A DNA stretch of 21,832 bases from a virus (lineage: Duplodnaviria > Heunggongvirae > Uroviricota > Caudoviricetes), in the IMG/VR virus record IMGVR_UViG_2778261247_000008; one strand, given 5' to 3'. Shown piece by piece: positions 1-21,832 of the stretch; within the stretch, counting starts at the first letter, position 1; each line of letters begins with the position of its first letter. Below the pieces are notes generated by a model that was given only the letters and a program-made list of their open reading frames with translations, searched no databases and was not told where the DNA came from. The translations under genes were made by a program, and so were the position numbers.

Positions 1-755
1 CCAAATTTAAGGTACTGCTCCTCCCCGCAGTGCGGGCAGGCAACATGAAAACGCATAAAATGCGGGGATTCACTGGCAGCACGCTCAATCTGGCAGGTGC
101 CTCTCACTTTGGGCGTGGAGCCACGGATGGACTTTGGCCAGACCGAGCCTTCAATACGCTTGTCGCCCAGGAACGTCGGAGAGCCTTCCTGTTCAATATC
201 ATCATCAAAGGCAGCAAGTTCATCATAACCCGCCACATCCACTGACTTTTCACGGTAGTTTTTTGCCGCTTTACCGCCCAGGCACCAGAAGCCACGCCCA
301 TTGGTGAAACGCTTCATAGTGAGCGTGTTATCCCGGTGCTTTTTGCCATACCACGGGGCCAGCGCCAGCAGCGACGGAATATCACGGATGGTCGGCTCAA
401 CGTGGGTTTTCATAAAGTTTTCGGCATCGCCATCCGTCGGCAACCAGATAAGGGTGTTACGCTGCTTATGCTCTATGAAGTAGGCATAAACACCCAGCAG
501 CATTTTGGAATAACCAACACGGGCAGACTTCACCACATTCACCTCGCGGATGTAGTCGCTGCCCATCGCATTCATGATGGCACGCTGAAAGGGCAGTGTT
601 TCCCAGCGCCCTTCCTGGTATGCGGATTCTTTCGGGAGATAGTAATTGGCATCCGCCCATTCAACGGCGGTCTGTGGCTCCGGCCTGAACAGGGCACGAA
701 GCCCGGCGCGGACAAAATGCCGCAGCCTGTCAACCTGACTGTTCGATATATTCAC
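1..755 (-). CDS. A: terminase large subunit (lambda gpA-like), N-terminal ~251 codons; gene continues beyond window start
   Basis: Minus-strand translation starts at a GTG overlapping the Nu1 3' end (V/M-N-I-S-N-S-Q-V-D-R-L-R-H-F-V-R-A-G-L...) and is still open at position 1 (...H-F-M-R-F-H-V-A-C-P-H-C-G-E-E-Q-Y-L-K-F-G), matching lambda gpA as recalled. Absent from the ORF track because it runs off the edge. Start coordinate +/-1. Confidence 0.88.
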   Translation of the reverse strand, partial: MNISNSQVDRLRHFVRAGLRALFRPEPQTAVEWADANYYLPKESAYQEGRWETLPFQRAIMNAMGSDYIREVNVVKSARVGYSKMLLGVYAYFIEHKQRNTLIWLPTDGDAENFMKTHVEPTIRDIPSLLALAPWYGKKHRDNTLTMKRFTNGRGFWCLGGKAAKNYREKSVDVAGYDELAAFDDDIEQEGSPTFLGDKRIEGSVWPKSIRGSTPKVRGTCQIERAASESPHFMRFHVACPHCGEEQYLKF

Positions 756-1275
756 TCAGCAACCCCGGTATTAGTTCATCCAGCGCGGCTGCTTTGTTCA
801 TGGCTTTGATGATATCCCGCTTCAGGAAATCAATATGCCGGTTATCCAGCTCAGGAAAACGTCGCTGCACCGACAGAGGAATACCGTCGAGAATACTGGA
901 TATTTCCCTTGCTATACGCGACAGCACGAAAGTACAGAATGCGGTTTCCACCACTTCAGCCGATTCTTTGGCATTTTTCAGTTCTTGCGCCGTCGCCTGA
1001 GCACGAGTCAGGCGATGGCGCTCAAATTCAAGTGTTCCGGGGTGAAGATCTGCCTCGCTGGCCAGCCGTAATTCTTCAACCTCCCGGCGCAGCTTTTCGT
1101 TCTCAATTTCAGCATCCCTTTCGGCATACCATTTTATGACGGCGGCAGAGTCATAAAGCACCTCATTACCCTTTCCACCGCCTCGCAGAACGGGCATTCC
1201 CTGCTCCTGCCAGTTCTGAATGGTACGGATACTCGCACCGAAAATGTCAGCCAGCTGCTTTTTGTTGACTTCCAT
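730..1275 (-). CDS. nu1: terminase small subunit (lambda Nu1-like)
   Basis: 181-aa ORF MEVNKKQLADIFGASIRTIQNWQEQGMPVLRGGGKGNEVLYDSAAVIKWY..., near-identical to lambda Nu1 as recalled (winged-HTH N-terminus); overlaps the A start as in lambda. Confidence 0.9.
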   Translation of the reverse strand: MEVNKKQLADIFGASIRTIQNWQEQGMPVLRGGGKGNEVLYDSAAVIKWYAERDAEIENEKLRREVEELRLASEADLHPGTLEFERHRLTRAQATAQELKNAKESAEVVETAFCTFVLSRIAREISSILDGIPLSVQRRFPELDNRHIDFLKRDIIKAMNKAAALDELIPGLLSEYIEQSG

Positions 1276-1279
1276 TGTT

Positions 1280-1464
1280 CATTCCACGGACAAAAACAGA
1301 GAAAGGAAACGACAGAGGCCAAAAGGCCTGTTTTCAGCACCTGTCGTTTCCTTTCTTTTCAGGGGGTGTTTTAAATAAAAACATTAAGTTACGGAGAAGA
1401 AGAACGGAAACGCCTTAAACCGGAAAATTTTCATAAATAGCGAAAACCCGCGCGCCTTCCGCCC
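1280..1464 (-). other. cos region: cosB-like terminase binding sites plus candidate cosN at about 1453..1464
   Basis: Minus-strand reading CGCGGGTTTTCGCTATTTATGAAAATTTTCCGGTTTAAGGCGTTTCCGTTCTTCTTC...GAAAGGAAACGACAGGTGCTGAAAA... is nearly identical to the lambda cosB segment preceding Nu1 as recalled. The 12 nt immediately upstream (GGGCGGAAGGCG) occupy the position of the lambda cohesive end GGGCGGCGACCT. Confidence 0.6.
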
Positions 1465-1529
1465 CGTAGCCTGCCGGATCGCCGGAAAGGACCCGCAAAG
1501 GTGAGAATAATTATCACTTGCATTAATAT

Positions 1530-1706
1530 CCAGCTTCTTCCACCATCGCACCGGACGGGCGACTATGAGGGACAAAACCGCGCACCATAAACGCGGTAAA
1601 AACCCGGTGTGCATCGTTTTTGATTATTTCCGCACACTCGCGCAGAAGGAATTCCCCGTCGGGCTACGGTCATGGTTAATGCGGAAATACGGCGACGATG
1701 CAGCGC
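1530..1706. repeat. direct repeat copy A (~175 bp, ~90% identical to copy B)
   Basis: Aligns with 2481..2656 from ...TTCTTCCACC..ATGAGGGACAAA.. through CGCGGTAAAAACCCGGTGTGCATCGTTTTTGATTATTTCCGCACACTCGCGCAGA.GGA.TTCCCCGTCGGGCTACGGTCATGGTTAATGCGGAAATACGGCGACGATGCAGCGC. Contains the internal inverted repeat ATTTCCGCA/TGCGGAAAT. Confidence 0.8.
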
Positions 1707-1826
1707 ATGATGTGTCAGGCTTGAATACCTTTATCCGTTAAAAGGGATATCAGTTAAGTTATCCCGTGCAGGGTATAAGCCATTATCAAAGCCACTCAGT
1801 AGCGAATGGCTTTTGTAATGGACTAT

Positions 1827-2423
1827 TTAATTAGTGATGCTGCGTGGCTTCATACAAATTTCAGAAATATGATTCTTTTCGTCCAAATGATGCTGGACAT
1901 CATTTTTATCATCACTCAACAACTCTGCTGTTAATACAATCCCTGCTGTCTCAGATTTCCAGGAAATGCTGATATCCTGATCATCTGCATCAACATCATA
2001 TTTTATCGAGTAAGGACTAAAGCTACGTCCAACGAACGCATCATTTACCAGTACACGCCCACCCTGTCTGACCTGAAAGTCAACGCGCCCTGAAAGCTGA
2101 TTTGCTGTTACAAGCAATGCCTTTTTTCTTTTTGTTTTATTGCTCATTGCCACCAACTGTTCAGCCATCTCTCTTGTCACACTACCAGAAACTCTTTCTT
2201 GAATTTTCACAGAAAATTTTCTGGATGTAGTAGCATCGACATTAAAAAATCTGGATGTCATCAGGCAGTTATTAACAATTGGCATCAGCTCACTTACGAT
2301 TGTAAAAAATTCCCGGTAAAGCTCATTTTGCTTTTCAACACACAGCTTTCCACAATCGTCCAGCTTACGCTCAAGAGCACTTAATCTTTCCATTATTGAA
2401 TTAATTTTTTGCAACTCTTTCAT
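1827..2423 (-). CDS. hypothetical protein (198 aa), bracketed by the two direct repeats
   Basis: ATG at 2421..2423 preceded by AGGAGG about 8 nt upstream (MKELQKINSIMERLSALERKLDD...). The longer track ORF 1827..2684 only extends to a GTG inside a palindrome. Confidence 0.5.
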   Translation of the reverse strand: MKELQKINSIMERLSALERKLDDCGKLCVEKQNELYREFFTIVSELMPIVNNCLMTSRFFNVDATTSRKFSVKIQERVSGSVTREMAEQLVAMSNKTKRKKALLVTANQLSGRVDFQVRQGGRVLVNDAFVGRSFSPYSIKYDVDADDQDISISWKSETAGIVLTAELLSDDKNDVQHHLDEKNHISEICMKPRSITN

Positions 2424-2445: not shown

Positions 2446-2465
2446 CGTGCGACCACGGTCGCACG
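2446..2465. other. sopC-like palindrome (candidate partition centromere / SopB-ParB binding site)
   Basis: CGTGCGACC-AC-GGTCGCACG, perfect 9-bp arms with 2-bp spacer. Core TGCGACCACGGTCGCA differs from the F-plasmid sopC repeat TGGGACCACGGTCCCA (as recalled) at one symmetric position. Confidence 0.55.
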
Positions 2466-2480
2466 CTCCTGAATACATGC

Positions 2481-2656
2481 CCTGTTTCTTCCACCCTCGC
2501 ACAGGACTGGCGAGCATGAGGGACAAACCCGCGAATCATTAGCGCGGTAAAAACCCGGTGTGCATCGTTTTTGATTATTTCCGCACACTCGCGCAGAGGA
2601 GTTCCCCGTCGGGCTACGGTCATGGTTAATGCGGAAATACGGCGACGATGCAGCGC
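2481..2656. repeat. direct repeat copy B (~175 bp)
   Basis: See copy A. Copy B is bracketed by the sopC-like palindromes at 2446..2465 and 2666..2685. Confidence 0.8.
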
Positions 2657-2665
2657 GGTATTTAA

Positions 2666-2685
2666 TGTGCGACCACGGTCGCACA
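2666..2685. other. sopC-like palindrome (candidate partition centromere site)
   Basis: TGTGCGACC-AC-GGTCGCACA, perfect 9-bp arms. Confidence 0.55.
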
Positions 2686-2703: not shown

Positions 2704-3015
2704 TTATGCTACAGAGGAACAAGCTGGCGGGTAATTCAGCGTAGTGAATACCGGCATCTCCATCTTGTATGCGTAATGATACTCAGCAGTTGCTCCAGCA
2801 GACGCTTTCCAGCCAGGAAGCATCAAAATAGCATCAGCACAACGAAGCATTGCAAAGCAAATATCCATGTATTCACGTTGTGTCAGACCATTAGGCAAAG
2901 TGGCTGGATTCAAGACAGAGTGACCATGTCGTGACAAACGATCTGCCTCTTTATTAAAGGCGTCACGATTAAAGTTCTCATATCCAGTCATTGGCCCGGC
3001 AATATAAATTTTCAT
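2704..3015 (-). CDS. DUF4406-like protein (nucleoside 2-deoxyribosyltransferase-like fold)
   Basis: 103-aa ORF MKIYIAGPMTGYENFNRDAFNKEADRLSRHGHSVLNPATL...AILMLPGWKASAGATAEY..MPVF, matching the recalled DUF4406 pattern (MKIY.AGP.TG ... V.NP ... LPGW..S.GA). Confidence 0.6.
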   Translation of the reverse strand: MKIYIAGPMTGYENFNRDAFNKEADRLSRHGHSVLNPATLPNGLTQREYMDICFAMLRCADAILMLPGWKASAGATAEYHYAYKMEMPVFTTLNYPPACSSVA

Positions 3016-3056: not shown

Positions 3057-3524
3057 TTAATTCGGGCATTGCGTCTTGATGTATTCCTGAAGCGTTCTCA
3101 GTGCTGTCTGGTCTCTGATGATTCCGTCCCGGATACCGAGAACGTTTCGTCCAGCAACTGGAGAGAGTTCGACGGTGGCATCATTGCCCATGCCGGAGGC
3201 GCTGGAGGTTTCGGCTGAGGATGGCACAGAGCATTTTCCTTTGACGAGCACCCGACCACCATTATCAAGCTTGCGCCGAAGAGCATCATTTTCAGCTTTC
3301 GCATCAGCCAACTCCTTCGTGTATTTTGCATCGAGCGCAGCAACATCACGCTGACGCTGCTGCATGTCAGCGATGGTGGCGGTCGCCTGCTTCAGCTCAC
3401 TGACTTTTTTATCACGCTGTTCTTTGTAGGCGATGGCGTTATCACGGTAATGATTAACAGCCCACGACAGGCAGACGATGATGCAGATAACCAGTGCGGA
3501 GATAATTGCGGTTACTCTGCTCAT
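3057..3524 (-). CDS. Rz: i-spanin Rz
   Basis: From internal ATG: [37 protein letters not shown]..., near-identical to the lambda Rz N-terminus as recalled. N-terminal TM anchor; ATGA overlap with the endolysin stop. Confidence 0.85.
3098..3304 (-). CDS. Rz1: o-spanin Rz1 (lipoprotein embedded in Rz, +1 frame)
   Basis: [21 protein letters not shown]... with lipobox (VVGC) and proline-rich stretch [16 protein letters not shown]. Start taken at the Met matching lambda Rz1 MLKLKMML; track ORF 3098..3349 includes an upstream extension. Confidence 0.7.
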
Positions 3525-4021
3525 TGCTGCCCCCACAAACAGACTTCACGCTCAATCTCACGGCGAGTCATCAGCCCTTTCCATTGCTTACCGCCAGCAT
3601 ATGTCCAGCGACGTAGTTGATCACATGCACCTTTGATATCGCCCTGGTTGATTTTGCGAAGAAGTGTCGATGTTCTGAAATTGCCTGCACCCACGTTGTA
3701 AACGAACGAGTAAAGAGCACCACGCGTTGTTTCCGGTATATCGACTTTGATGTACGGGTTAATTTGTCTGGCGACAGTAGCAAGGTCTTTATTCAGGAGA
3801 GCTTTGCATTCTGCTTCGGTATACGTTTTACCGAGCATAATGTCTTTTCCTGTATGCCCGTAACATACAGTCCATACACCAACGATGTCTTTGTAGGGGT
3901 TATGTCTCACACCTTCCAGACCATCGTTGCCGCTCGGACCAGAGATGAGCACAGATGCTATGGCAATAGCCCCGCCACCAATAGCAGTTGCGACAGCTTT
4001 GCGTAATGATGACTGCATCAT
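3521..4021 (-). CDS. R: SAR endolysin (phage 21 R-type lysozyme)
   Basis: 166 aa with N-terminal signal-anchor-release segment ([20 protein letters not shown]) followed by a lysozyme domain; near-identical to phage 21 R as recalled. Confidence 0.88.
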
Positions 4022-4290
4022 ATTTCCTTCGGTGCTCTCTTTCCCAATTCACCAATAACCATCGCCGTGGCGGAAATATTATTGGCATCAGTTTTATCCA
4101 ATATGTCCTGCAATATCTTCGTGCGCTTCATCTGCTCGCGTTTATTGAGCCGGTATGTAAGTACACCGAGGATAATGCTGAACGCGACACCGATAATGAA
4201 GCCCCAATCCTGCAATGACAGGCTGGCAAAGAACGCAGTAAGACCAGCACTACCATAAGATGCGCTGCTGTATCGTTCATCCATCTTCAT
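4018..4290 (-). CDS. S: holin, pinholin (S21-like) with MKM dual-start motif
   Basis: 90 aa, MKMDER..., weakly hydrophobic TMD1 ([16 protein letters not shown]) plus TMD2 ([18 protein letters not shown]), similar to phage 21 S68 as recalled. GAGGT RBS; ATGA overlap with the endolysin start. Confidence 0.7.
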
Positions 4291-4385: not shown

Positions 4386-5507
4386 TTACTCAAATAACTT
4401 TTTCACTTCATCAACTGTCTGAAGATAACGTTCACCCTCAATCTCAATACCGATTGCCTGACGACCTAACTTCAGCGCGGCTTTAATAGTAGAGCCTGAT
4501 CCCATAAAGAAATCGGCAACGATATCTCCGGGGCGGGAACTACTTTTTATAATATGTTCCATCATCGCTGCAGGTTTTTCACATGGGTGCTTGCCAGGAT
4601 AATATTGCACAGGAGGAAACTCCCATACATCGGTATAAGGTACATCAGCAGTAACATGAAATGGGCGGCGCAAATTTTCATACTGAGCCTTCAAATCATC
4701 ATACTGCTTCTTTACTTCCTCATAACGCAATTTCAGATCGCTATAACGCTTTTCATGTTCTGAATAATCAACATTAAAAGGATATGGACACGGGACACCG
4801 AGTGAATCTGCCTTCCTGCGAAATAATTCGCATAGTTTATTAAAATCACTTAATGATGGAAGCCGCCACTGCGAATAAGAAAACCAGTGCGAACACATCT
4901 GCTTTCCTGTTGCTGAATTAATGTCTGCGGCTGATATATCTAACTGACGGCGAGCCAGCGAAAAAGCATCAATTAGTGGAGAAAAAATATTTTTTCTTAA
5001 ATCTGCACATTTTGAAGCATAACCTGACTGACCTTTAGCATAACCTGACGCGCCGTAATGCTCTGCAAATAATATTCTTTCAGTGGCAGGAAAATAAGCC
5101 CTTAAACTTTCTTTATGACAACCGCGCCACATACCACTGGGTTTAGCCCAAATGATATGGTTCAGAACATTGAAACGGTCGCGAGTTAATAATTCAATTT
5201 TTGACGCAAGGCGAGAGCCGGTAAACATATACAGGCTGCCATTAGGGGCCAATATCCGCCAAAATTCTGCCAAAAATTCATCAATCCACCCCAAAAAGTC
5301 AGCATCGCTATCCCACTGGTTATCCCATGCGTTAGCCTTTACGCCGAAGTATGGTGGGTCTGTTGCAATCAAATTGACCGAGTTATCAGGGATGGTTTTG
5401 ATAAATTGCAGAGAATCTGCGCAAACGAGTTGCGCGCCATGAATATTAGTGGTTTTGAACATAGCTATTATTTTTTTGCCTGGGTAAGCTAACCCGGCGA
5501 TGCGCAT
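4386..5507 (-). CDS. orphan DNA methyltransferase (beta-class N6-adenine/N4-cytosine, DPPY motif)
   Basis: Motif IV ATDPPYF near the N-terminus, AdoMet motif I DFFMGSGST near the C-terminus, coiled-coil middle. No adjacent restriction endonuclease gene. True start may be the internal ATG at 5460..5462 (MFKTTNIHG...). Confidence 0.85.
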   Translation of the reverse strand: MRIAGLAYPGKKIIAMFKTTNIHGAQLVCADSLQFIKTIPDNSVNLIATDPPYFGVKANAWDNQWDSDADFLGWIDEFLAEFWRILAPNGSLYMFTGSRLASKIELLTRDRFNVLNHIIWAKPSGMWRGCHKESLRAYFPATERILFAEHYGASGYAKGQSGYASKCADLRKNIFSPLIDAFSLARRQLDISAADINSATGKQMCSHWFSYSQWRLPSLSDFNKLCELFRRKADSLGVPCPYPFNVDYSEHEKRYSDLKLRYEEVKKQYDDLKAQYENLRRPFHVTADVPYTDVWEFPPVQYYPGKHPCEKPAAMMEHIIKSSSRPGDIVADFFMGSGSTIKAALKLGRQAIGIEIEGERYLQTVDEVKKLFE

Positions 5508-5597: not shown

Positions 5598-5620
5598 AAA
5601 AAAACCGCCATAAAGGCGGC
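5598..5620 (-). terminator. intrinsic terminator candidate (tR'-like) upstream of the methylase-lysis operon
   Basis: Minus strand: GCCGCC-TTTAT-GGCGG followed by TTTTTTT. Confidence 0.45.
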
Positions 5621-5658
5621 TTGTTGGCTGTTGGGTACAAAAAACCCAACTTAACAAA

Positions 5659-5687
5659 ACAATAACTAAAAACCGTAATTTTGCCAA
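5659..5687 (-). promoter_or_regulatory. candidate sigma70 promoter (possible late promoter)
   Basis: Minus strand TTGGCA-17 nt-TATTGT, followed by hairpin GTTGGGT..ACCCAAC and the terminator above; layout resembles lambdoid pR'-tR'. Confidence 0.3.
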
Positions 5688-5704: not shown

Positions 5705-5726
5705 CTGTGCGACCACGGTCGCACAG
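5705..5726. other. sopC-like palindrome (candidate centromere site), immediately upstream of the candidate late promoter
   Basis: CTGTGCGACC-AC-GGTCGCACAG, 10-bp perfect arms. Confidence 0.55.
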
Positions 5727-6357: not shown

Positions 6358-6669
6358 ATGTTTAACGTGATAACCCACCCTGCAGCACTGGATGAACTGC
6401 TTGAACTACCAGATGATTTGCGAGGTCGCATGACCAGATTAATTGAGCGACTGGAGAAGGAAGGCAACAAACTGAAGATGCCCCATAGCCGTGTAATAGG
6501 TGGAGGGCTTTTTGAACTACGAGTAGGGGATAAAAACATCGCAAGAACGCTGTACGCCTACGCGACTGGTAACGAAATTTATCTATTGCATGCATTTGTA
6601 AAAAAGACACAGAAAACACCGGTGAAGGCTATCGAAATCGCCAGAACTCGCCTGAAGGAGATGAACTGA
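6358..6669 (+). CDS. higB: type II toxin, RelE/HigB superfamily (Gp49-like)
   Basis: 103 aa; GGAGG RBS; toxin-first order with a 1-nt overlap (TGATG) to a downstream XRE-HTH gene. Sequence MFNVITHPAALDELLELPDDLRGRMTRLIERLEKEGNKL... fits the Gp49/HigB-like family as recalled. Confidence 0.7.
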   Translation: MFNVITHPAALDELLELPDDLRGRMTRLIERLEKEGNKLKMPHSRVIGGGLFELRVGDKNIARTLYAYATGNEIYLLHAFVKKTQKTPVKAIEIARTRLKEMN

Positions 6670-6956
6670 TGAAAGCGAAAGGCATCCCGTTTAACGAAGT
6701 AAAAGAAAAACTTCTCAACACTCCAGAAGCCATCAAAGGATATGAAGAGGCCGATAAAGAGCTGGAGATGGTCGAAATGTTATACGAAATGAGGGAAAGA
6801 GCAGGTTTAACGAAATCAGCTCTGGCTGAACGAATGGGGTTGCGACCGTCAGCCATCAGCCGCCTGGAAAGCAATCCTTTAGGGGCAAGTATGAAAACTT
6901 TGGCTAAATATGCTCATGCCTGCGGCGCAACCATCGATATTCGCGCTGTTTATTAA
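6669..6956 (+). CDS. higA: type II antitoxin, XRE-family HTH (HigA-like)
   Basis: 95 aa with HTH (GLTKSALAERMGLRPSAISRLE); translationally coupled to the upstream toxin. Confidence 0.7.
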   Translation: MKAKGIPFNEVKEKLLNTPEAIKGYEEADKELEMVEMLYEMRERAGLTKSALAERMGLRPSAISRLESNPLGASMKTLAKYAHACGATIDIRAVY

Positions 6957-8547: not shown

Positions 8548-8834
8548 GCTGATTCCCCTTTATCTGCTCTCTCCTGTCGGAACATCACTATCATCAGGTC
8601 GCCTTTTGTCGCTATCTTGGCTGTTGTGCCTGGCTCAATGCGGCTAAGTTCAAATGCGTCATAGAACGCCTCTAACACTTTCTGGCGTCTTTCCTGTTTG
8701 CGGTGCTTTCCCCACTGCTTTAGAAAAACAGAGGCCGCCCACTTCCCCGCACTGAACATGATGTAAAACCAACCGAGAAGTGCCAGACCGATATTTAGGG
8801 CCGTATCGATCGTTATCGTGGTGTCGATATTCAC
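8544..8834 (-). CDS. hypothetical membrane protein (96 aa)
   Basis: One predicted TM segment (ALNIGLALLGWFYIMF); coupled overlaps with neighbours. Confidence 0.45.
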   Translation of the reverse strand: MNIDTTITIDTALNIGLALLGWFYIMFSAGKWAASVFLKQWGKHRKQERRQKVLEAFYDAFELSRIEPGTTAKIATKGDLMIVMFRQERADKGESA

Positions 8835-11234: not shown

Positions 11235-11261
11235 GCGGTTATTATAAGCAATAAATCGCAT

Positions 11262-12167: not shown

Positions 12168-15100
12168 ATGACATTAAACGATTTCTATGCGGATCGCTTT
12201 GGCAGCGATCCGTTCTCGCTAATTGAAGCAGCACGGGATGAACTAACCGAGCTGGCACAGATGGCTGGTATCAACTGGTCTGCCTGTTCCGACAACATCC
12301 AACTCAACCCTCGCGGGGGTGTTGAGCGTTACTCTTCATACAATAAAACATCTCCAGAAGCTCTCGAAAAGAGCCTCAAAGGACGCGTAGAAATTTACTC
12401 CCGGCTGGAACACAGCAAAGGGATTGATTACCCGTTCATTAACTTCGTCCATAAAGGCAGCGATGCTGGCTCATGGAGCGGTTTCTCCTTCCTGTTTTCT
12501 GAATATCGCCGTGAGCAACAACGGAATAATGCGACCGTGGTCGCACAACCGGAAGAAGAACGGGCAAGAATAGAACGTCAGGCCGAAGCACGTCGTCGCC
12601 GTGAAGAACAAAAACGAATTAATGACCTGAAAAACAACCAAATGGACCATGAACGTTTGCTGGGATGGCTGGCATTCCACAGCGCGTGGGAACATGCTCC
12701 TGCAGAAGACGGCTCATGGCCATATGCGATTAAAAAAGGTATTCGTGACGTTTTTAATTCGTGTGATGTGCGTCGCGTGACCAGTCACGACAGCGCAAAA
12801 TGGAGCAGGGGGCCAACCACGTATATGGCTATCCCTCTGGCTCACCTGGACGGTCGTTACGATGGTCGTATTGTGGGTTGGCAGCGAATCGACAAACAAG
12901 GTGGAAAATACCAGACCAGCGCCGTAACCAGCGGCGATTTCGTCGGTGCCTGCTTTGTTATCGGTGAGCTAAAAGGGGCGCAAAACATCGCTGTTACAGA
13001 AGGTTTTGCTACTGGTGCATCCATCTGGCTTGCCACGAAAAAAGATAAACGCTTTGACGCTGTGGTTGTCGCTGTATCCGCTAATAACATGGTTCATGTT
13101 GTGGAACAACTGGTAAACATGTACCCGGCGGCAAAAATCACCTGCGCACTGGATAATGACCGGAAATCAGCCACAGAAGGAAAAGGGAATACCGGCCTGC
13201 GGACTGGCTATGAAATCTTATCGAAATTCAACGATGTCCGCTGCGTCTATCCAACTTTTGAAGACGATCCGCAAATGGAGTGCAGTGACTTCAACGACCT
13301 GCACAAACTGCGTGGACTTCGTGAAACAGCACGTCAACTGTTTGCAACTGCAAACCGCCTGAAAACCGGCACTGATTTGCTATCTCTGACGCTCAACCGC
13401 CTGAAGACAATTAAGCGGGATAACCGTCGTACTTTTGCCAAAGAGCTGCTGAGAGCGGTGGATATTGGCATGCTAACCTGTCCGGTTCCTAACAGTCCGT
13501 CAGACTTATTTAACATGTTCTGCATCGTTCTGCGTGAAATGGGGCTGGAAAATATCTATCGCGCTACGGTAAAAGACCACATTGCCCGTCGCCTGAATAA
13601 AAAGTGCCGTATTGCCCAGGCTCCGCGCTCATTCAGCGAACGCATAACTGATCCCAATAAACGTCCTCAACATATCACCTATAAGCGTTTTGAAACTTCG
13701 GTAATGACCGATGACGTCCTGAAGTATGTGCAATCACTACAGGGGATAGTCATCGTTCGTGCTGGTATGGGTTCCGGCAAATCTACTGGATTGTTACGAC
13801 CTTTAATGCATAGCTCAGAACGTGGTATCTCTGTTGCTCACCGTGTTTCCCTTATTGGTGGCCTGTGGGAAATGATGACAGAAGGAAAAGGTGTAAAAGC
13901 CGATATCCTGCACTATCAGGACCCTGGCTATCAGGAAATGGCTCCATACGCCAGTAAACTGACCATCTGCATAAACTCGATTGTTAAAAACTGCTGGCAA
14001 CCGTTGATGCGCCAGCACGACTATTTTGGCTTTGACGAGGCCACGCAAGGGCTACGTGCCGTTCTTTCCGGTCGGGCTATGGAAAACCCGGTGGCTGTAT
14101 TCAATACGTTAATCGACGCGCTGGCCAGAACGGAACAACACCCAATAATGGTGGATGCTGATGCGAACGATCTGCTGGTTGACCTGGCTGAACTGGCTAT
14201 GAAACGCCGTGAAGAACTAGGTTTACCGGCATGGCTGCAGATCCACGTAATTGAATTACCTGTTGATGTTCGCAACCGCGAAACAGGTGAGCCAATCCGG
14301 GTTTTTTATACAGAAAAAGATCGCATTATGACCGAGGTGGTGAAAGCTGTATCGGATGGCGAAAAAATCATGTTGGCCACCGACAGCTCCACCTTTGCAG
14401 AAGATGTGACAGCCACCCTGAGAATGCATTTTCCTGGTAAGAAATTTCTGTGTGTAAACCAGAAAAACAAACCAGAGCCAGAAGTTGAAGCATTTACCAA
14501 TCAACCGAAAAAGATGGTCAAAAAATACGACGGCCTGATTTATAGCCCGTCTATTTCATCCGGTGTGTCGATTGAGCAAAAACATTTTGACCGTCATTTC
14601 GGCATGTTCTGTGGTGAAGTTGTACCCAGCGACGCAGTGCAAATGCTACGCCGCGACCGTACAGCAAAAGAATTTATTATCGGCTTTGATAAAGCTCGCG
14701 CAAAACGTGAAACTGACCCGCAAAAAATAGAACGAGCATTCGCCCAGGCATTGCTTGCTACCGCAGGCATGAACGGTGAACTGACGGATGTCGTTTTCGA
14801 TGGCGACCGTATATCAATGGGGGTGGCCAATACCGACTTTACCAGGATGAAAATTAAAGCAGCCGCAATTGAAGCGTCTGCGCGTAACGACTACGCCAGC
14901 AACATGATCTGCATCATGCACAGCGACGGTTATAAGGTATCGCCGCTGGCCACCGATTATGCTGCGAATGATATCGGTAAAGATCTGCGTAAAGAAGCGC
15001 GGGATATTGTGTGGGAACAGACACTGGATCTGCATCTCAATACAGAAACTCCACAAGAATCAGAGCGTGAAGAACTGCTAAAAAAACGCGCGCTGACGCT

Positions 15101-16163
15101 TGAAGAACAAGCAAAACTTGTCCGCTGGGATATTGAGAACGAACTGAAACTACCGGTTGAAGAAGGCACGCTGAAATTCTATTTCGATGGTGCTCGAGAC
15201 AAAGTTCGCCGCTATGAAACAATGCTTTTAGATGAGGTAACAGCTCGTCGTTACGACCGGGAAGAAGCAGCCATCAATTTTACCTACGCATACCGTCAGG
15301 CGGGACAGTGGCAATATTTTGTAGTGACCGCGATGACTCGCGAGCAGGCTGATGATGTCTTTAAAACTAAATTCCCTGGAATAATCGACTACAAGGTAAA
15401 AGCTACTCCTACTGTTGAAGTCGGGGCGCGCGGTTTCTATGCGCTTAAATCAGCAACTCTCCGGCAGTACTTTATCGACTGCGGTATCAACCCTGAGACT
15501 ATGACCGGCGAGGCGACTCAGGAGCGTCTCAAATTCGCTCGAGATAACCTCATGACAGCCGAACGCCGTGACCTGTTGAATAACGTTCTGCACATTGGTG
15601 GTTTTATGACGCCAAAAGGGAAGCCTAAAGTGCCGGAAGCGTTGTTTAAAAACATTTGCGACTCTCTTGGCCTTAAAACAGGTAAACGTCGCGGCAGAGA
15701 CGGCGATAAGCGTCCAACCTTGCGTTTTGTTGAGCCTGAATCAGCGGCATTTATGCTGGATATTCTTGTTCAGCGTCAGAAAGATGGCCTAACCCTAAAA
15801 ACGCGTAAAGCCGAGAAGACAGCCATCGAAATGGATCGCGATTTGGATCTCAATATATATATGGATGATAAAACGCGATCCACAAACGAGCAGGTTCAAA
15901 ACGCCCCTCATTCAGTAATTTCTGAGGCTTTGGCCGTATTGCCGGTGGCTGTTCCTGAGTCCTGGGCGATGAGTGCGCTTTCCGGTGAGGAGCTGGCCAC
16001 TATGTCATCATGGTCATCAGCCAGCATAGCTATGACGTTTGCATCTCTGTATCTCACAGAGTTCATGGATCACTTGTCCAGCAATGAATTGCGGCGGTTA
16101 CGAGAATACATTACCGGGAATAGCTCATGCAGCTACGAAGAGCAGGGCGCTTTCTATGGGTAA
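12168..16163 (+). CDS. repA: replication protein RepA, multidomain primase-helicase (N15 RepA-like)
   Basis: Single 1331-aa ORF with Walker A VRAGMGSGKSTGLL in the central region; size and position next to cB match N15 RepA (about 1324 aa, as recalled). Confidence 0.85.
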   Translation: MTLNDFYADRFGSDPFSLIEAARDELTELAQMAGINWSACSDNIQLNPRGGVERYSSYNKTSPEALEKSLKGRVEIYSRLEHSKGIDYPFINFVHKGSDAGSWSGFSFLFSEYRREQQRNNATVVAQPEEERARIERQAEARRRREEQKRINDLKNNQMDHERLLGWLAFHSAWEHAPAEDGSWPYAIKKGIRDVFNSCDVRRVTSHDSAKWSRGPTTYMAIPLAHLDGRYDGRIVGWQRIDKQGGKYQTSAVTSGDFVGACFVIGELKGAQNIAVTEGFATGASIWLATKKDKRFDAVVVAVSANNMVHVVEQLVNMYPAAKITCALDNDRKSATEGKGNTGLRTGYEILSKFNDVRCVYPTFEDDPQMECSDFNDLHKLRGLRETARQLFATANRLKTGTDLLSLTLNRLKTIKRDNRRTFAKELLRAVDIGMLTCPVPNSPSDLFNMFCIVLREMGLENIYRATVKDHIARRLNKKCRIAQAPRSFSERITDPNKRPQHITYKRFETSVMTDDVLKYVQSLQGIVIVRAGMGSGKSTGLLRPLMHSSERGISVAHRVSLIGGLWEMMTEGKGVKADILHYQDPGYQEMAPYASKLTICINSIVKNCWQPLMRQHDYFGFDEATQGLRAVLSGRAMENPVAVFNTLIDALARTEQHPIMVDADANDLLVDLAELAMKRREELGLPAWLQIHVIELPVDVRNRETGEPIRVFYTEKDRIMTEVVKAVSDGEKIMLATDSSTFAEDVTATLRMHFPGKKFLCVNQKNKPEPEVEAFTNQPKKMVKKYDGLIYSPSISSGVSIEQKHFDRHFGMFCGEVVPSDAVQMLRRDRTAKEFIIGFDKARAKRETDPQKIERAFAQALLATAGMNGELTDVVFDGDRISMGVANTDFTRMKIKAAAIEASARNDYASNMICIMHSDGYKVSPLATDYAANDIGKDLRKEARDIVWEQTLDLHLNTETPQESEREELLKKRALTLEEQAKLVRWDIENELKLPVEEGTLKFYFDGARDKVRRYETMLLDEVTARRYDREEAAINFTYAYRQAGQWQYFVVTAMTREQADDVFKTKFPGIIDYKVKATPTVEVGARGFYALKSATLRQYFIDCGINPETMTGEATQERLKFARDNLMTAERRDLLNNVLHIGGFMTPKGKPKVPEALFKNICDSLGLKTGKRRGRDGDKRPTLRFVEPESAAFMLDILVQRQKDGLTLKTRKAEKTAIEMDRDLDLNIYMDDKTRSTNEQVQNAPHSVISEALAVLPVAVPESWAMSALSGEELATMSSWSSASIAMTFASLYLTEFMDHLSSNELRRLREYITGNSSCSYEEQGAFYG
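12530..12545. other. sopC-like palindrome inside repA, opposite orientation (spacer GT)
   Basis: TGCGACC-GT-GGTCGCA, 7-bp arms; on the coding strand all five sites read GCGACCGUGGUCGC in the mRNA sense. Confidence 0.45.
15833..15881. other. candidate replication origin element inside the 3' part of repA
   Basis: GGATCGCG ... CGCGATCC inverted repeat flanking an AT-rich core (ATTTGGATCTCAATATATATATGGATGATAAAA) with GATC sites; N15 ori is reported inside the 3' region of repA (recalled). Confidence 0.3.
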
Positions 16164-17165: not shown

Positions 17166-17978
17166 ATGCGTAACAAAAAAACAACAGCTTTATTACTCTC
17201 TCTCTTGTTATTATCTGGATGCACTTATCAATATGATAATAAGGCATCAACGGACGTTGAGTATAAATTCGAAAAAGAAAAAAGAGTACCTATCAACTCT
17301 GTTGGTGATTTTAGCAGCAAAATACTCACAGGTAAGGAATTTAATAGAATTATTGCATCAAAGATAGATGATGGTTCATGGCGTGGATATATCGTTCACT
17401 CATTAACATACGCGCCATACAACAACGTTTTAACATCTCAAGGTTTGTCTATCCCTAGAAGTATCACATACTCAGGAACATATCTTAACCGTGATTTTGT
17501 TGAGAATAGCGGTAGTGATAGCGTGATAACTTCTCGAGATATGTCTGGATGGTATGGTTTTCATGTTGGTTCTTCTGAAATAACAACGCATGGAAACTAT
17601 GTTGGCGTGAATGCTTTGGGAATATCTGCTGATGTAGAAGTGTTAAACACTTTAGGTGCTGAAATTATCTTTGGCAGCACACAAATAAATAAAGAAAATC
17701 CTGAAACAATATGGGCAGATATTGATATAAAAGGACAAATCCCAAAAGATGTTAATGTAAAAGACCTTAGAATTGAATATTTAGCAAAGATAAATGGGTT
17801 AAGCAGTAATCATATTGATGTAACATCACCTACTATTTTTAACCCGTCAGATATGAGCCATAAAACTCAGGTTTTTATGGGTGAGTTATTAGCAGCACGC
17901 CTGATAAATTTTAAAACGGGAGAAATTTACCCAGTACAGTTAGAGTGGGTGTTCCGTTCGCGTGAGGCTTTCTTATAA
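17166..17978 (+). CDS. lipoprotein (270 aa), AT-rich moron-like gene
   Basis: AAGAGG RBS; signal peptide with lipobox MRNKKTTALLLSLLLLSGC; visibly more AT-rich than its flanks. Confidence 0.65.
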   Translation: MRNKKTTALLLSLLLLSGCTYQYDNKASTDVEYKFEKEKRVPINSVGDFSSKILTGKEFNRIIASKIDDGSWRGYIVHSLTYAPYNNVLTSQGLSIPRSITYSGTYLNRDFVENSGSDSVITSRDMSGWYGFHVGSSEITTHGNYVGVNALGISADVEVLNTLGAEIIFGSTQINKENPETIWADIDIKGQIPKDVNVKDLRIEYLAKINGLSSNHIDVTSPTIFNPSDMSHKTQVFMGELLAARLINFKTGEIYPVQLEWVFRSREAFL

Positions 17979-18079: not shown

Positions 18080-18109
18080 TTGACGTGTGCGTCGTTTTGA
18101 CGGTAAAGT
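18080..18109 (+). promoter_or_regulatory. candidate promoter of the ant-operon leader
   Basis: TTGACG, 18-nt spacer, TAAAGT. Confidence 0.3.
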
Positions 18110-18116
18110 TACTCCG

Positions 18117-18190
18117 CTGCGGCAAATTCCGCAGCCGGGCGTGAGAACCCGGATAAACGAAGCGCACAACACGCGCCAGCGTGTTTTTTT
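18117..18190 (+). ncRNA. candidate c4-like small regulatory RNA / attenuator transcript in the ant-operon leader
   Basis: Two stem-loops (CTGCGG-CAAATT-CCGCAG; CCGGG-CGTGAGAA-CCCGG) followed by an intrinsic terminator (AACACGC-GCCA-GCGTGTT plus T-run). Loop GUGAGAA is complementary to UUCUCAC at 18275..18281 in the downstream leader. Confidence 0.35.
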
Positions 18191-18356
18191 GTGTGTATAT
18201 ACCTGCGCATATCCGATTTATGGTGGCTCAGGCGGGGCTGACTTCGGTCAGGCCGGTTTCTTCGTTTGCCGGTATTCTCACCCCCGCTTGGGCTACCACC
18301 ATTCAAGAGCGTGAGAACTCTGGTGGTAGCACGACCAATTAAACGGAGTGCATACC

Positions 18357-18521
18357 ATGTTCAAATTCAAATTTGCGGCAGTCGTTCGCACAGACAAAAA
18401 GTCACACATCCATCATCTTTCCACCATCGCGTCATCTGAACGGGAAGCTCGTCGCCAGTTCGCCAGCCGGTTTGTCCTGGTATTGTCTGCCCGTATTCCG
18501 GTGCGCGAGGTGGCTGCATGA
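18357..18521 (+). CDS. small protein (54 aa), first gene of the ant operon; possibly Icd-like
   Basis: MFKFKFAAVVRTDKKSHIHHLSTIASSEREARRQFASRFVLVLSARIPVREVAA; GGAG RBS; ATGA overlap with the next ORF. Not in the ORF track (under 60 aa). Confidence 0.4.
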   Translation: MFKFKFAAVVRTDKKSHIHHLSTIASSEREARRQFASRFVLVLSARIPVREVAA

Positions 18522-18748
18522 ATCAGGTAAAAATGAACACTGTTGGCCTGCTGGAATCGTTGGATGAACGTCTGGATCAGGTCTATGCGCTCGTATCATC
18601 AGCCCATCGGACAGTCTCCAGCTGTGAGGCGTCGATTTATCTCTCAGAAGCAGGGAAACTCCTTCAAATTGCGTGTGAGTTAACACACGAAGCACAGGGG
18701 TATTCAGCATCGCTCTCGTCGCAATTGCTAGGCAAGGAGGCTGAATGA
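18518..18748 (+). CDS. hypothetical protein (76 aa), translationally coupled between the small ORF and ant
   Basis: ATGA overlaps at both ends. Confidence 0.45.
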   Translation: MNQVKMNTVGLLESLDERLDQVYALVSSAHRTVSSCEASIYLSEAGKLLQIACELTHEAQGYSASLSSQLLGKEAE

Positions 18749-19530
18749 GCGCGTTAGCAGTTTTTTCCTTTCAGGATGAGCATCAGATACGTGTAGTGAT
18801 GATTAACGGCGAACCGTGGTTTATTGCTGCTGATATTTGCCGTGCTTTAGGTATAGGGAATCCGACAAAAGCTATAAAAAACTTAGATCATGATGAAGTA
18901 GCCCTTACTTCAATTCAGGGCTTAAGTCGAGGTAATGATAAAGCGAATATTGTCAATGAATCAGGTCTATACACCCTGATCCTCCGCTGCCGTGACGCTG
19001 TAAAACAGGGCACGACCGCGTGGCGTTTTCGTAAATGGGTAACGAACGAGGTCTTGCCCTCTATTCGCAAGAATGGAGAGTACGTTTACGTCGAGCCTGA
19101 GCCAATGCGAGCAGCGGAGCCGTTGAACTGGAGGCAGAAGGAGTATCTGCGAGGGCTGATTAACGATATTGCACAAAGTTTTCAATACCGAAATGCCTGG
19201 ATTAGTGGTGTATGGTTGGCTTTGCGTCGGGCGTGTCGTAATCCATCCCCGAACCCCATAACGGTTGATGATTTGCCAGCAATTACGGCAGAACTGCGCC
19301 GGATTTTGACGGCTGCTGAGTCGGCATTGGGGAACATGCGTACGTATGAACGAGAGTTGTTGCGTGATGTCGTTCGTGGGGGTAGGCGGAGTATGTCGTG
19401 TGGTGATTTGCCCATCACCGATATTAACTCTGATCTGGAAAAGGCGTTACCCGCGCATTTTGAACTGGCAGTTCAAAAACTTGAGCAGTTATCCGCGCAG
19501 TTAAAGCCAGCAGAAATCACTAATAAATAG
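18745..19530 (+). CDS. ant: antirepressor with N-terminal BRO-N/Ant domain
   Basis: N-terminal pattern FSFQDEHQIRVVMINGEPWFIAADICRALGIGNPTKAIKNLDHDE is typical of the Bro-N antirepressor domain. Confidence 0.7.
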   Translation: MSALAVFSFQDEHQIRVVMINGEPWFIAADICRALGIGNPTKAIKNLDHDEVALTSIQGLSRGNDKANIVNESGLYTLILRCRDAVKQGTTAWRFRKWVTNEVLPSIRKNGEYVYVEPEPMRAAEPLNWRQKEYLRGLINDIAQSFQYRNAWISGVWLALRRACRNPSPNPITVDDLPAITAELRRILTAAESALGNMRTYERELLRDVVRGGRRSMSCGDLPITDINSDLEKALPAHFELAVQKLEQLSAQLKPAEITNK

Positions 19531-19666
19531 GGTTGACCAGCCCGAATTTATGCCCTTCTTAGAGAAGGGAAGCCTCGCAGTCGGGGCGGTGATGTCTGTG
19601 GTTGCAGCCGCGTTTCCTCCGTTACTTCTGCCCTTTGCAGGGGGCAGGCGAGGTAGGTCACACAAC

Positions 19667-19690
19667 AAGGCACCGTTAATTCGGTGCCTT
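19667..19690. terminator. hairpin between convergent ant and telN (bidirectional terminator candidate)
   Basis: AAGGCACCG-TTAATT-CGGTGCCTT, 9-bp stem, followed on the plus strand by TACTGTATGCTTT. Confidence 0.5.
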
Positions 19691-19701
19691 TACTGTATGC
19701 T

Positions 19702-21603
19702 TTAACCGAAATATGTCAGCCATGCTAACTGCATTGCTGACATGGGGCTGTTTGCACTGCCGGACCACGCATAATTCTGGCCATTATAATGAAACTCAAC
19801 AACGTATGAGCCATCACCAATATTTCTCACCGGCTTAAATACCGGCTTAGATACAGGCGAAGAAGGTGCAGGCGGTTGCTGTTCTTCTACGCTCTCTTCC
19901 TCTTCCTCTTCCTCTTCCTCTATCTCAATTTCGTCGTCATCCAGATCGTCATCCTCTGATAATTCATCCGCCAGTTCAGGTATTGCTTCCTGTTCTTCTT
20001 CGTCAGGCATAACGATTTCTGGAGTATCTATTTTCAGTTGCCATTGTCCGTTTTCGCCAACAAATTGCCCCAGAGCATCAGCAGCAAATTCCAGGTATCG
20101 ACTAATCATTGTTGGGCTAAATTTGAACGCTCTTAGAGTGCTGTTCGTGATTTTTATAGAGGGGTCCTGCTCTACCAGCTGCTTAACTGTGTTATGCAGA
20201 CGAACCCCGGCATCTCCTCTGGCGAATCCAGGCATTTCGTCATCAAGCTGCTGCAATGCTTCCAGCCTGGTATTTTCGTTTCCAGTATTTGGCCTCCATG
20301 TCTTTGAGAAGTTGGCCAGCTTGAATTGCTTATAGTGTAATTGAGTGTTTTCATCGTCATGGCCTAAAATTTCCATAAAGAAAACATCTTCATCTACATT
20401 TTTCCAACGGGGATCTACGCGGAAAAACATTTCATACGCAATGCGGGCATAAATAGCACGACTATCTTTATAAACACGGCGGTCATCTTTGAAAAATGAT
20501 TTAACCCAGGGGTTAAAAGCCTTTGCTAATATGGCATTAATACGTCCGTTTTCAGACCGTGTATCGTTATCTCCATAACCTTTAACGACATCATCAAAAT
20601 CAGATGCTGCTGGGCATGAGCGAAGTACATTTATTAAATAAACAAATGTTTTTGCCTCACATAATGTATATATTTTTCTGGTTATATCATCAGCAGTTCT
20701 TTTTTTAGCTTGACCTAAAAAATCAACGGTATACTTACCAGAAACAGTAAATGTACCTTGATACATAATCTCAATCATTCGTCTTCCTGACAATGCAGCA
20801 AGTGCAAATGCCAAAGGAGCCATACCTGAACGAGTGTTTAGATTATTTAATGTAGCAGGGCTATTTATAATATCGTAAATAGCTTGCATATATTTAGGGT
20901 AGTCAATGACCACTACGTTACGTTTCTTATTGTGTAGAACGTCCGCCCATCGTTGCTGGATAGATGCGCGTTCTGCAGGGCTTAGTTGGAGATGATAGAG
21001 AATCTCATGGTTAACCTTTAGCTGATTCAACTCCTCAAGCAAGGCAGACCCCTGCTGTAGTAATTTATATAAATAATCGCGCTTATCTTTCCAGTTATCA
21101 CTAATTAAATCAGAAATGGCAAATTGCCACTCTTTATATTTATTTGATAATTTTATTAACTTATTATTACTTTTATTATCACCAATTCTGATATTAGATA
21201 AATCTTCGGACAGAGGAATAATTAATTTTAACTTTGCCTGTAAAGCTGACATTCTCCGGCGAATATCGGCAGCAGGTAGAGAAAGCCATGACAATAGCTC
21301 CTCATTATATAAAGGATACTTTTCAGATAGGCGATATATATTTTTTTCAAAACTATGATGAAGTTTATCATCAAACCGTTTTCTGGCCCTGCTCATATAG
21401 GCATTGAATGTGTTGGCTGTAATTCTTTTTTCTAATCCTTTCCCCCGAAACTTTCGCTTGTCATTAAATAATGCATTTTTAAATTTTAATGCAACGGCCT
21501 TTATTTTTTTTGTTTTCTCCCCTTGAGGACGATCAGAGTTATCTATTGACTCAACATCGCTAACAAGTGAGTTTATTAATTCACCGATTTTTACTTTGCT
21601 CAT
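19702..21603 (-). CDS. telN: protelomerase (telomere resolvase) TelN
   Basis: 633 aa; N-terminus MSKVKIGELINSLV...NALFNDKRKFRGKGLEKRITANTFNAYMSRARKRFDDKLHHSF and C-terminus ...GDGSYVVEFHYNGQNYAWSG match N15 TelN (about 631 aa) as recalled. AGGAG RBS; telRL-like palindrome about 150 bp upstream. Confidence 0.9.
   Translation of the reverse strand: MSKVKIGELINSLVSDVESIDNSDRPQGEKTKKIKAVALKFKNALFNDKRKFRGKGLEKRITANTFNAYMSRARKRFDDKLHHSFEKNIYRLSEKYPLYNEELLSWLSLPAADIRRRMSALQAKLKLIIPLSEDLSNIRIGDNKSNNKLIKLSNKYKEWQFAISDLISDNWKDKRDYLYKLLQQGSALLEELNQLKVNHEILYHLQLSPAERASIQQRWADVLHNKKRNVVVIDYPKYMQAIYDIINSPATLNNLNTRSGMAPLAFALAALSGRRMIEIMYQGTFTVSGKYTVDFLGQAKKRTADDITRKIYTLCEAKTFVYLINVLRSCPAASDFDDVVKGYGDNDTRSENGRINAILAKAFNPWVKSFFKDDRRVYKDSRAIYARIAYEMFFRVDPRWKNVDEDVFFMEILGHDDENTQLHYKQFKLANFSKTWRPNTGNENTRLEALQQLDDEMPGFARGDAGVRLHNTVKQLVEQDPSIKITNSTLRAFKFSPTMISRYLEFAADALGQFVGENGQWQLKIDTPEIVMPDEEEQEAIPELADELSEDDDLDDDEIEIEEEEEEEEESVEEQQPPAPSSPVSKPVFKPVRNIGDGSYVVEFHYNGQNYAWSGSANSPMSAMQLAWLTYFG
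19893..19920. repeat. hexanucleotide tandem repeat (TCTTCC)x4 inside telN, encoding a poly-Glu run
   Basis: Four perfect TCTTCC units on the plus strand = (GGAAGA)n on the coding strand = EEEEEEEEE in the acidic linker. Confidence 0.85.
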
Positions 21604-21756
21604 CTTTCTTCTCCTGATTATCCGCTCGGATTATCGTAACACAATTTGAGAATAAGATAACCAATAACGAGTTAACTTACCCACAAAACAACAGAACACA
21701 ATACCAGATTGTAAAAAATAACACAATACAGGAACGTGGAAATTTGTTCCTTGACT

Positions 21757-21832
21757 TTGTTCTGATGATCAGCACATAATTACCCATTATACGCGCGTAT
21801 AATGGGTAATTATGTGCTGATCATCAGAACAA
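21757..21832. other. telRL-like telomere resolution site: 76-bp perfect palindrome abutting the window end
   Basis: TTGTTCTGATGATCAGCACATAATTACCCATTATACGC|GCGTATAATGGGTAATTATGTGCTGATCATCAGAACAA; the central CCATTATACGCGCGTATAATGG is identical to the N15 telO core as recalled. Confidence 0.8.

Follow-up and report, generated by a model that had tools for sequence, protein, structure and literature searches.

A probable N15-like telomere phage of Escherichia with a lambda-like packaging arm and a mosaic lysis cassette

We note that the 21,832-nucleotide stretch of viral DNA analysed here as a whole (the window; IMG/VR record IMGVR_UViG_2778261247_000008) is very probably one half, from cos to telomere, of an N15-like temperate telomere phage of Escherichia in its linear-plasmid prophage state, and that it belongs to the lineage represented by phages PhiR46_1 and YDC107_1. 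With the same high degree of confidence we read this lineage as an N15-plan plasmid and regulatory backbone joined to a virion and packaging arm nearly identical to that of lambda, plus, in the lysis cassette, a small R-Rz patch of lambdoid type. Nor is the element new: its lineage has already been sequenced and deposited, as two named phages and dozens of plasmid records, and its mosaic is already in print. Our contribution is a gene-by-gene map of the joints, which brings out a three-way mosaic lysis cassette, a distinct and common cohesive-end allele, and centromere sites in an integrated prophage.

An earlier note, made from the letters of the window, had proposed a mosaic genome with sharp module boundaries, and both are borne out. 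The window was compared by blastn, by tblastn and in 500-bp bins with lambda (NC_001416), N15 (NC_001901), phiKO2, PY54 and phage 21 (OL657228.1, a record found by tblastn using an S21 sequence that was 97% correct). It is lambda-like over 1-1452, carries a phage 21-like endolysin, and is collinear with N15 from 4397 to its end. Nucleotide identity by bin is 93-97% to lambda over 1-1500, taking in Nu1, the gpA N-terminus, cosB and the cosQ side; 92% to phage 21 over 3501-4000; and 64-81% to N15 elsewhere, with 68% of the window aligned to N15 overall at 73.6%. Uniform moderate identity to a single known phage, which the earlier note had named as the observation that would count against a mosaic, was looked for and not found; the near-uniform and very high identity to PhiR46_1 (92% aligned, 99.1%) lies outside that wording.

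When the whole window was compared by megablast with 50,697 phage records, the only near-full match was Escherichia phage PhiR46_1 (PV340565.1), covering 92% of the window at 99.0%; Escherichia phage YDC107_1 (CP025712.1) covers 73% at 98.2%. By local blastn the window and PhiR46_1 are 99.8% identical over 1-1845 and 99.9% over 1839-17091, and merely 91-96% identical in the region 18001-21805 (91% over 18001-18834 and 95.8% over 19641-21805), while window 1-16070 is 97.9% identical to YDC107_1. Both phages share with the window the holin, R, Rz, the cos allele, the centromere sites, Q, cro, cB, repA and telN. PhiR46_1 differs in having an extra 827-bp piece with a further open reading frame (ORF), absent from the window at the 1839-1845 junction, and in being without the full antB that the window carries.

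The PhiR46_1 record, which runs in the opposite orientation to the window, describes a complete phage genome from host ECOR13, in which are annotated telL and telR, ParA/ParB, RepA under the label "primase", a repressor of cI type and all the lambda genes from Nu1 to J, plus lom and stf. Its deposition as a complete phage with a named host suggests, short of proof, that it was recovered as a phage. Over 18 kb the Nu1-J arm of PhiR46_1 agrees with that of lambda at 96.7%; across the genome, 42% aligns with lambda at 96% (40% of bases shared) and 55% aligns with N15 at 74%, identical bases amounting to 41% of genome length. In the practice of the international committee for virus taxonomy (ICTV), membership of the genus Ravinvirus calls for about 70% or higher genome-wide nucleotide similarity to N15, a level that PhiR46_1, at 41%, does not reach; the YDC107_1 record is filed under Ravinvirus nonetheless.

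The lineage is also well represented among plasmids. At least 16 PLSDB plasmids and eight RefSeq E. coli replicons cover at least 80% of the window at 96-99%, their hosts being E. coli, E. fergusonii, E. albertii and Shigella sonnei, and the closest is NZ_CP165740.1 (98.8% over 1-21765). Relatives matching only 1535-21832 were considered as possible carriers of a different packaging module, and this was rejected: plasmid pG749_3 has the same Nu1/A (98%), its match being split by an indel.

A 2025 preprint on phage-plasmids of clinical Enterobacteriaceae has described a lambda-like structural cassette in N15-like Escherichia and Shigella contigs, whose repA/sopAB/telN region was likened to phiKO2 and NAR688 (10.1101/2025.09.12.675607). 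A literature search (PhiR46; ECOR13 with lambdoid terms; Genome Res 2025) found no paper describing PhiR46_1, the source paper for YDC107 does not discuss the phage, and Pfeifer and Rocha (2024) cover N15-like elements by group-level statistics only.

The order of genes along the window is gpA N-terminus, Nu1, cos, lysis genes, methylase, early genes, Q/cro/cB, repA, ant operon, telN and telomere. The features that carry the N15 plan are as follows.

4386..5507, minus strand: N6/N4 DNA methyltransferase, homologue of N15 gp52 (Pfam N6_N4_Mtase; 84% protein identity to N15)
5602..5687, minus strand: candidate late promoter (5687-5659) and terminator (5622-5602), from a consensus scan
6358..6956, plus strand: RelE/ParE toxin (6358-6669) and helix-turn-helix (HTH) antitoxin (6669-6956), 92% and 86% identical as proteins to N15 gp49 and gp48
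10313..11023, minus strand: Q antiterminator (Pfam Phage_antiter_Q, 285 bits; 67% protein identity to N15)
11013..11261, minus strand: Cro (Pfam P22_Cro; 87% protein identity to N15)
11326..11922, plus strand: CB prophage repressor (HTH_3 and a weak Peptidase_S24 match; 78% protein identity to N15 gp38)
12168..16163, plus strand: RepA replication protein, 1331 aa (75% identical to N15 gp37 as protein; NCBIfam CyRepA1 at 259 bits, above the cut-off of 200)
19702..21603, minus strand: protelomerase TelN (four TelK/ResT Pfam domains; 77% identical to the TelN of N15 as protein)
21757..21832: tel palindrome, centre 21794/21795, with perfect 38-nt arms to the window end and core CCCATTATACGCGCGTATAATGGG

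The statement that telN, repA, cB and the ant operon follow the N15 plan can thus be upheld: the order is the same, and telN, repA, cB, cro, Q, antA and antB are 62-87% identical to their N15 counterparts as proteins, with homologues of N15 gp51 and gp50 at 75-81%. RepA answers to the multidomain type (primase, helicase and origin binding) that in the N15 group is encoded beside the cB repressor and divergent from it, and TelN matches the TelK structure 2v6e (E=3e-294) with the LHYKQFKL segment conserved. From cos to telRL the window has its genes in the same order as N15, with the RelE/HTH pair, the methylase, the telO core and scattered centromere palindromes common to both, and its putative late promoter and terminator, placed after the centromere site at 5707, occupy the same position as those annotated in N15 at 41162-41250. 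The N15 block of genes 41-45 is replaced in the window. With phiKO2 the likeness extends to telN (75%), repA (76%), cB (77%) and identical 18-bp partition palindromes, whereas the PY54 backbone proteins are just 30-49% identical to those of the window; phiKO2 and PY54 both have HK97-like or P27-like heads and terminases, without a match to window 1-1500.

At the other end of the window lies the packaging module.

1..755, minus strand: terminase large subunit gpA, first 251 codons, running off the window start (99% protein identity to lambda A)
730..1275, minus strand: terminase small subunit Nu1 (Pfam Phage_Nu1, 318 bits)
1276..1452, minus strand: cosB, where Nu1 and IHF bind, about 95% identical to lambda 13-190
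1453..1464, minus strand: putative cosN 12-mer, cohesive end GGGCGGAAGGCG, from alignment to the lambda, phage 21 and N15 ends
1465..1516, minus strand: cosQ-side sequence at the right end of the virion chromosome, with GGGTCCTTTCCGG conserved and 86.5% identity to lambda 48452-48502

The earlier description of Nu1, the gpA N-terminus and cosB as nearly identical to lambda stands. Window 1-1452 is 94.8% identical to lambda 1465-13 at the nucleotide level; the gpA N-terminus is 99% identical to that of lambda as protein (tblastn; N15 gp2 89%, phage 21 74%) and Nu1 93% (N15 54%, phage 21 51%), so that the terminase of phage 21 differs from that of the window, and cosB has about 9 differences from lambda in 178 bases. 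An inverted repeat at 1300-1356 is the counterpart of the lambda R2/R1 region, and aligned to lambda the site has cosB (R3-I1-R2-R1) and a cosQ-side element flanking cosN, the lambda-type layout. Of the rest of lambda, the window lacks int/xis, N, cI, O/P, the nin region, S and R, and its prophage would be a hairpin-ended plasmid whereas the lambda prophage is integrated.

Amid a cosB about 95% and a cosQ side about 86% lambda-like, cosN itself stands out. The 12-mer GGGCGGAAGGCG differs from the GGGCGGCGACCT of lambda and phage 21 at 5 of 12 positions and matches it at 7, which is not the lambda cohesive end, and N15 has GGGCGGCGTCCG. The same 12-mer is found in PhiR46_1, YDC107_1, plasmid pG749_3 and one integrated prophage, and in 78 IMG/VR contigs (the lambda allele occurs in at least 120); because of this recurrence, it is a common natural variant. 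Centromere-like palindromes lie near cos at 17 of 78 variant-allele and 4 of 80 lambda-allele IMG/VR loci, counts in which plasmid and integrated forms are unsorted and which we have not used.

The third module is the lysis cassette.

3057..3524, minus strand: Rz i-spanin (Pfam Phage_lysis; the ORF was listed as 3057-3536, and the Met at 3524 aligns with the lambda Rz start)
3098..3304, minus strand: Rz1 o-spanin, lying inside Rz, with lipobox VVGC and 60% identity to the Rz1 region of lambda
3521..4021, minus strand: signal-arrest-release (SAR) endolysin of R21/RrrD type (PDB 3hde and 4zpu, E about 1e-104)
4018..4290, minus strand: class II holin with two transmembrane domains and an MKM dual-start motif, not S21 (phrog_1350 holin, E=2e-31)

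Endolysin and holin had both been matched to phage 21, and the two fare differently. The endolysin is 92.8% identical to phage 21 R as protein and matches the R21 structure 3hde (E=3.5e-104); its translation has an N-terminal Gly/Ala-rich segment of the SAR kind and a Glu-Asp-Thr triad at E36, D45 and T51 (by our count), and window 3277-4011 as a whole is 90.8% identical to phage 21 at the nucleotide level. The holin has no tblastn match in phage 21, N15, phiKO2, PY54 or lambda, shares 34% identity with S21 over 53 residues, and does not reach the Pfam cut-off of either Phage_holin_2_1 (22.1 bits, cut-off 26) or Phage_holin_2_3. S21 and the window holin are alike in their two transmembrane domains and dual start and differ in length (71 and 90 aa). 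The holin is instead 89% identical as protein to those of Salmonella phages UPF_BP1 and 29485, and phage 29485 has this holin-lysozyme-endopeptidase trio too, as one contiguous stretch with 79% nucleotide identity. The match of Rz to lambda holds for its N-terminal half and not for the remainder: the two are 63% identical overall, with the likeness concentrated in the first 88 or so residues (3277-3524, 89.5% at the nucleotide level), and Rz21 of phage 21 is 61% identical to the window Rz. The R-Rz block as a whole (3056-4011) has matches at 89-93% in many lambdoid and P22-like phages, and the N15 lysis genes are unrelated or distant (R 33% identical, the holin without a match). The cassette is a three-way mosaic; that it is not simply that of phage 21, its trio being found also in Salmonella phage 29485, weakens the earlier interpretation.

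Two stretches of the window are lambdoid-like: the first, from 1 to about 1706, takes in the terminase, cos and a 188-bp lambdoid repeat, and the second, 3056-4011, takes in Rz and R. The intervening 1707-3056 retains content of the N15 plan, namely two centromere sites and a gp57-like DUF4406 gene.

1519..1706: direct repeat copy 1, a cos-proximal sequence common in lambdoids (84% identity to phage 21 41542-41704)
1827..2423, minus strand: 198-aa ORF between the repeat copies (phrog_2571, E=9e-108)
2447..2464: centromere palindrome of N15/phiKO2 type, GTGCGACCACGGTCGCAC
2470..2656: direct repeat copy 2, the same 188-bp sequence as copy 1
2667..2684: centromere palindrome
2704..3015, minus strand: DUF4406 protein, homologue of N15 gp57 (Pfam DUF4406, 117 bits; 84% protein identity to N15)
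5707..5724: centromere palindrome, N15 equivalent at 41124
10086..10103: centromere palindrome, N15 equivalent at 35930
12529..12546: centromere palindrome inside repA, with one mismatch

The 18-bp palindrome, annotated as a partition site in the phiKO2 record, occurs five times in the window (none expected by chance), at positions that match the N15 copies. The window holds the five palindromes; sopAB lies outside it and is represented in PhiR46_1 by the annotated ParA/ParB.

That the end of the window is the telomere of a plasmid is indicated by the tel palindrome, which shares CCCATTATACGCGCGTATAATGGG and ATCAGCACA with the telRL of N15 and phiKO2 (the telO core). Since cos is internal and tel terminal, the window corresponds to the plasmid-prophage form. 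The tel arms diverge beyond about 28 bases in N15, phiKO2 and PhiR46_1, while in the window they are identical over all 38, which gives its end the look of a hairpin telomere read through in assembly and not of a telRL junction. Such a junction, in the virion or circular form, would be marked by a sop-side flank such as ...ATGTTCTTG. Kilobase-scale inverted duplications surround telN in related records, and inverted repeats of this kind have been ascribed to wrap-around reads (10.1101/2025.08.29.673033).

The earlier note had drawn from these boundaries both recent recombination and an opportunity for learning whether lambda packaging works on a hairpin-ended replicon. The first is supported: the identity steps (95-99% towards lambda or lambdoid prophages, about 74% towards N15) are real, and they imply that DNA was exchanged recently with the lambdoid pool. 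The second is moot. By its record, N15 is itself a telomere phage whose terminase is of the lambda Nu1/A type, whose head and tail genes are lambda-like and collinear, and whose cos end has 12 bases, which in principle answers the question; the hybrid PhiR46_1, too, is already on deposit as a complete phage with its host named. Because N15 has the terminase, the collinear arm and cos, and the gpA N-termini are 89% identical, lambda-type packaging in a telomere phage is the ancestral N15 plan and no new experiment, which likewise weakens the reading first given to the element.

Which way the exchange ran is a further matter, and here an integrated lambdoid prophage of E. coli MS1657 is instructive. 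Its integrase adjoins sbcB, its LexA-family repressor gene is followed by rexA, and it has a lambda-family holin; it shares window 1-3524 at 98-99%, the match ending exactly at the Rz start. The cos-proximal segment at about 1707-3056, with its DUF4406 gene, is 99% identical in the prophage, and both of its centromere palindromes are present at the prophage locus, at 23281-23298 and 23501-23518; a search of the lambda genome for such palindromes found none. The segment 1707-3056 is covered to at least 80% by one match in 28 E. coli genomes; 4054 E. coli genomes match it in some part, most of the others over short parts only, such as the 188-bp repeat on chromosomes. As centromere sites have no evident use in the integrated MS1657 prophage, it is suggested that integrating lambdoid phages captured the cos-terminase end from a telomere phage, the lineage then being a bridge by which DNA leaves the plasmid as well as enters it, a proposal we put forward tentatively, rating its chances at slightly below even. 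At the least, centromere sites in an integrated lambdoid prophage hint at two-way traffic between phage-plasmids and integrated prophages.

Taken further, the lambda-type arm might be native to the Escherichia telomere-phage lineage, and its 97% identity to lambda the result of transfer into integrating lambdoids or in both directions. From the side of N15 there is indeed no identity step, the packaging end (1-957) being 75% identical and the backbone about 73%; N15 already carries a collinear lambda-like arm; and the MS1657 prophage shares 1-3524 with two N15-type centromere palindromes included. Against this, 5320 of 5426 E. coli genomes have a match to at least some of the window, the matches lying mostly on chromosomes, and telomere plasmids are few. 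With lambda-type structural and cos sequence on most E. coli chromosomes, the lambdoid pool is by numbers the likelier donor, and we regard a native arm as unlikely.

A second alternative, that the element is a defective, plasmid-only remnant whose packaging module is a relic, appears very improbable. It gains something from the fact that half of a genome is visible in the window, from indels among relatives (the 827-bp piece and antB are variably present) and from the many related records that are truncated or rearranged. All late, lysis, regulatory and replication genes in the window are nevertheless intact and of full length compared with N15, lambda or phage 21, a phage 99.8% identical, PhiR46_1, was deposited as a complete genome with a named host, and tails assigned to phage YDC107 have been imaged by cryo-electron microscopy (10.1101/2024.12.10.627647). 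Finally, an assembly chimera of a lambdoid prophage contig and an N15-like plasmid contig joined through shared repeats, to which the 188-bp lambdoid repeat (twice near the junction and present in thousands of chromosomes) and the artefacts at the window end and in several related records (hairpin wrap-around inverted duplications) might have pointed, was rejected as scarcely credible, because the same junctions recur in PhiR46_1, in YDC107_1 and in at least 16 plasmids that were assembled independently and come from different hosts and countries, because cos, accessory genes, lysis and methylase follow one another as in N15, and because centromere palindromes lie on both sides of the repeat.

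Several points do weigh against our preferred reading, that of a telomere phage of the PhiR46_1/YDC107_1 lineage with a lambda-like arm. No record in the three collections searched is identical to the window, the best, NZ_CP165740.1, reaching 98.8%, and window 17092-18000 is without a counterpart in PhiR46_1 or YDC107_1. The sopAB and structural genes lie outside the window and are known from relatives alone, and for this element we infer hairpin ends, the cohesive-end sequence and plaque formation alike. The packaging end (75%) is also as diverged from N15 as the backbone (about 73%), and the lambda/N15 exchange may have run in either direction.

If the preferred reading of a linear-plasmid prophage is correct, a life cycle can be sketched from homology to N15 and lambda, built on the cos-internal, tel-terminal layout and the centromere palindromes observed here. 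Virion DNA would carry 12-base cos ends and circularise at cos after injection, whereupon TelN would cut the tel palindrome and seal both sides as hairpins, giving a linear plasmid with cos internal and tel terminal. RepA would replicate this plasmid, with TelN resolving the replicated telomeres; in N15 the substrates of TelN are circular dimer intermediates (PMC12624138). The five dispersed centromere palindromes would serve a partition system of Sop type whose genes lie outside the window, and CB would repress the lytic genes, a repression that an antirepressor operon gated by a C4-type antisense RNA might lift. On induction, Cro and Q would activate the late operon, whose promoter lies a short way downstream of the 5707 centromere site, expressing methylase, holin, SAR endolysin and Rz/Rz1 and, across cos, Nu1, A and the lambda-type structural genes. 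The Nu1/gpA terminase would recognise the lambda-like cosB and nick cosN, its substrate, by analogy with N15 and lambda, being circular or concatemeric lytic products and not the hairpin plasmid. The mosaic probably arose by exchange, both homologous and illegitimate, with lambdoid prophages resident in the same host, and its joints fall at gene boundaries near 1519-1706, 3056, 3524 and 4011.

The remaining features of the window are accessory genes and the antirepressor operon.

7888..9852, minus strand: accessory early genes (Ea22/pmgU-like, DUF4752, DUF977 and a DEDDh 3'-5' exonuclease, from Pfam)
17166..17978, plus strand: orphan predicted lipoprotein, 270 aa, LLSGC lipobox, low G+C (about 35%), in a variable cargo slot
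18103..18303, plus strand: leader of the antirepressor operon, with the a1/b1 target and an isrK-like element (18103-18189) and a C4-type antisense RNA (18216-18303)
18403..19530, plus strand: icd-like ORF, antA (18518-18748) and antB with a Bro-N domain (18745-19530)

Neither block 7873-10042 nor block 16000-18000 is shared with N15. The former has patches at 92-95% in common with phage-plasmid D6, with the phages CMS-2020a and PhiR41_1 (about 108 kb) and with vB_EcoM-Ro157c2YLVW, which points to probable exchange with other phages, phage-plasmid D6 included.

The lipoprotein slot lies between the repA operon and the ant operon; PhiR46_1 has a Spackle-like exclusion gene there, and YDC107_1 other ORFs. 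The lipoprotein itself had no match in Pfam, PHROGs, PADLOC or NCBIfam and just three homologue clusters among 5.8 billion proteins, and its AlphaFold2 model (mean pLDDT, a per-residue confidence score, of 44) was too poor for use.

In the antirepressor operon, AntA and AntB are 62% and 75% identical as proteins to N15 gp31 and gp30; the icd-like label comes from the annotation of pG749_3, and the start at 18403 is where we mapped it. The leader RNAs score above the Rfam gathering scores (RF03163, 48.8 bits; RF01394, 68.1; RF01695, C4-type, 82.2). An ORF listed at 18087-18314 was rejected as a protein gene and taken as RNA, because the C4, a1/b1 and isrK matches cover it.

The two copies of the 188-bp repeat (1519-1706 and 2470-2656) are 87-98% identical and flank the phrog_2571 ORF, which has no Pfam match, together with one centromere site; PhiR46_1 has its extra 827 bp at this place. 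The region looks like a possible hotspot for repeat-mediated insertion and deletion of cargo.

In the interval from telN to the tel palindrome, (G/T)AACACAAT occurs three times within 90 bp (21637-21727). Over the whole window, GAACACAAT-like repeats are not enriched (5 found, 7.6 expected), and only the clustering at 21637-21727 deserves comment. Similar repeats flank telR in PhiR46_1, and the cluster may be the counterpart of the flanking TelN-associated repeats described for N15.

Within repA, identity to YDC107_1 drops from 97-99% to 82-92% over the last 1.6 kb of the gene (14501-16163) and is lost after 16070, while identity to PhiR46_1 stays at about 100% across the same interval. This contrast indicates a probable recombination joint within the lineage, inside the 3' part of repA.

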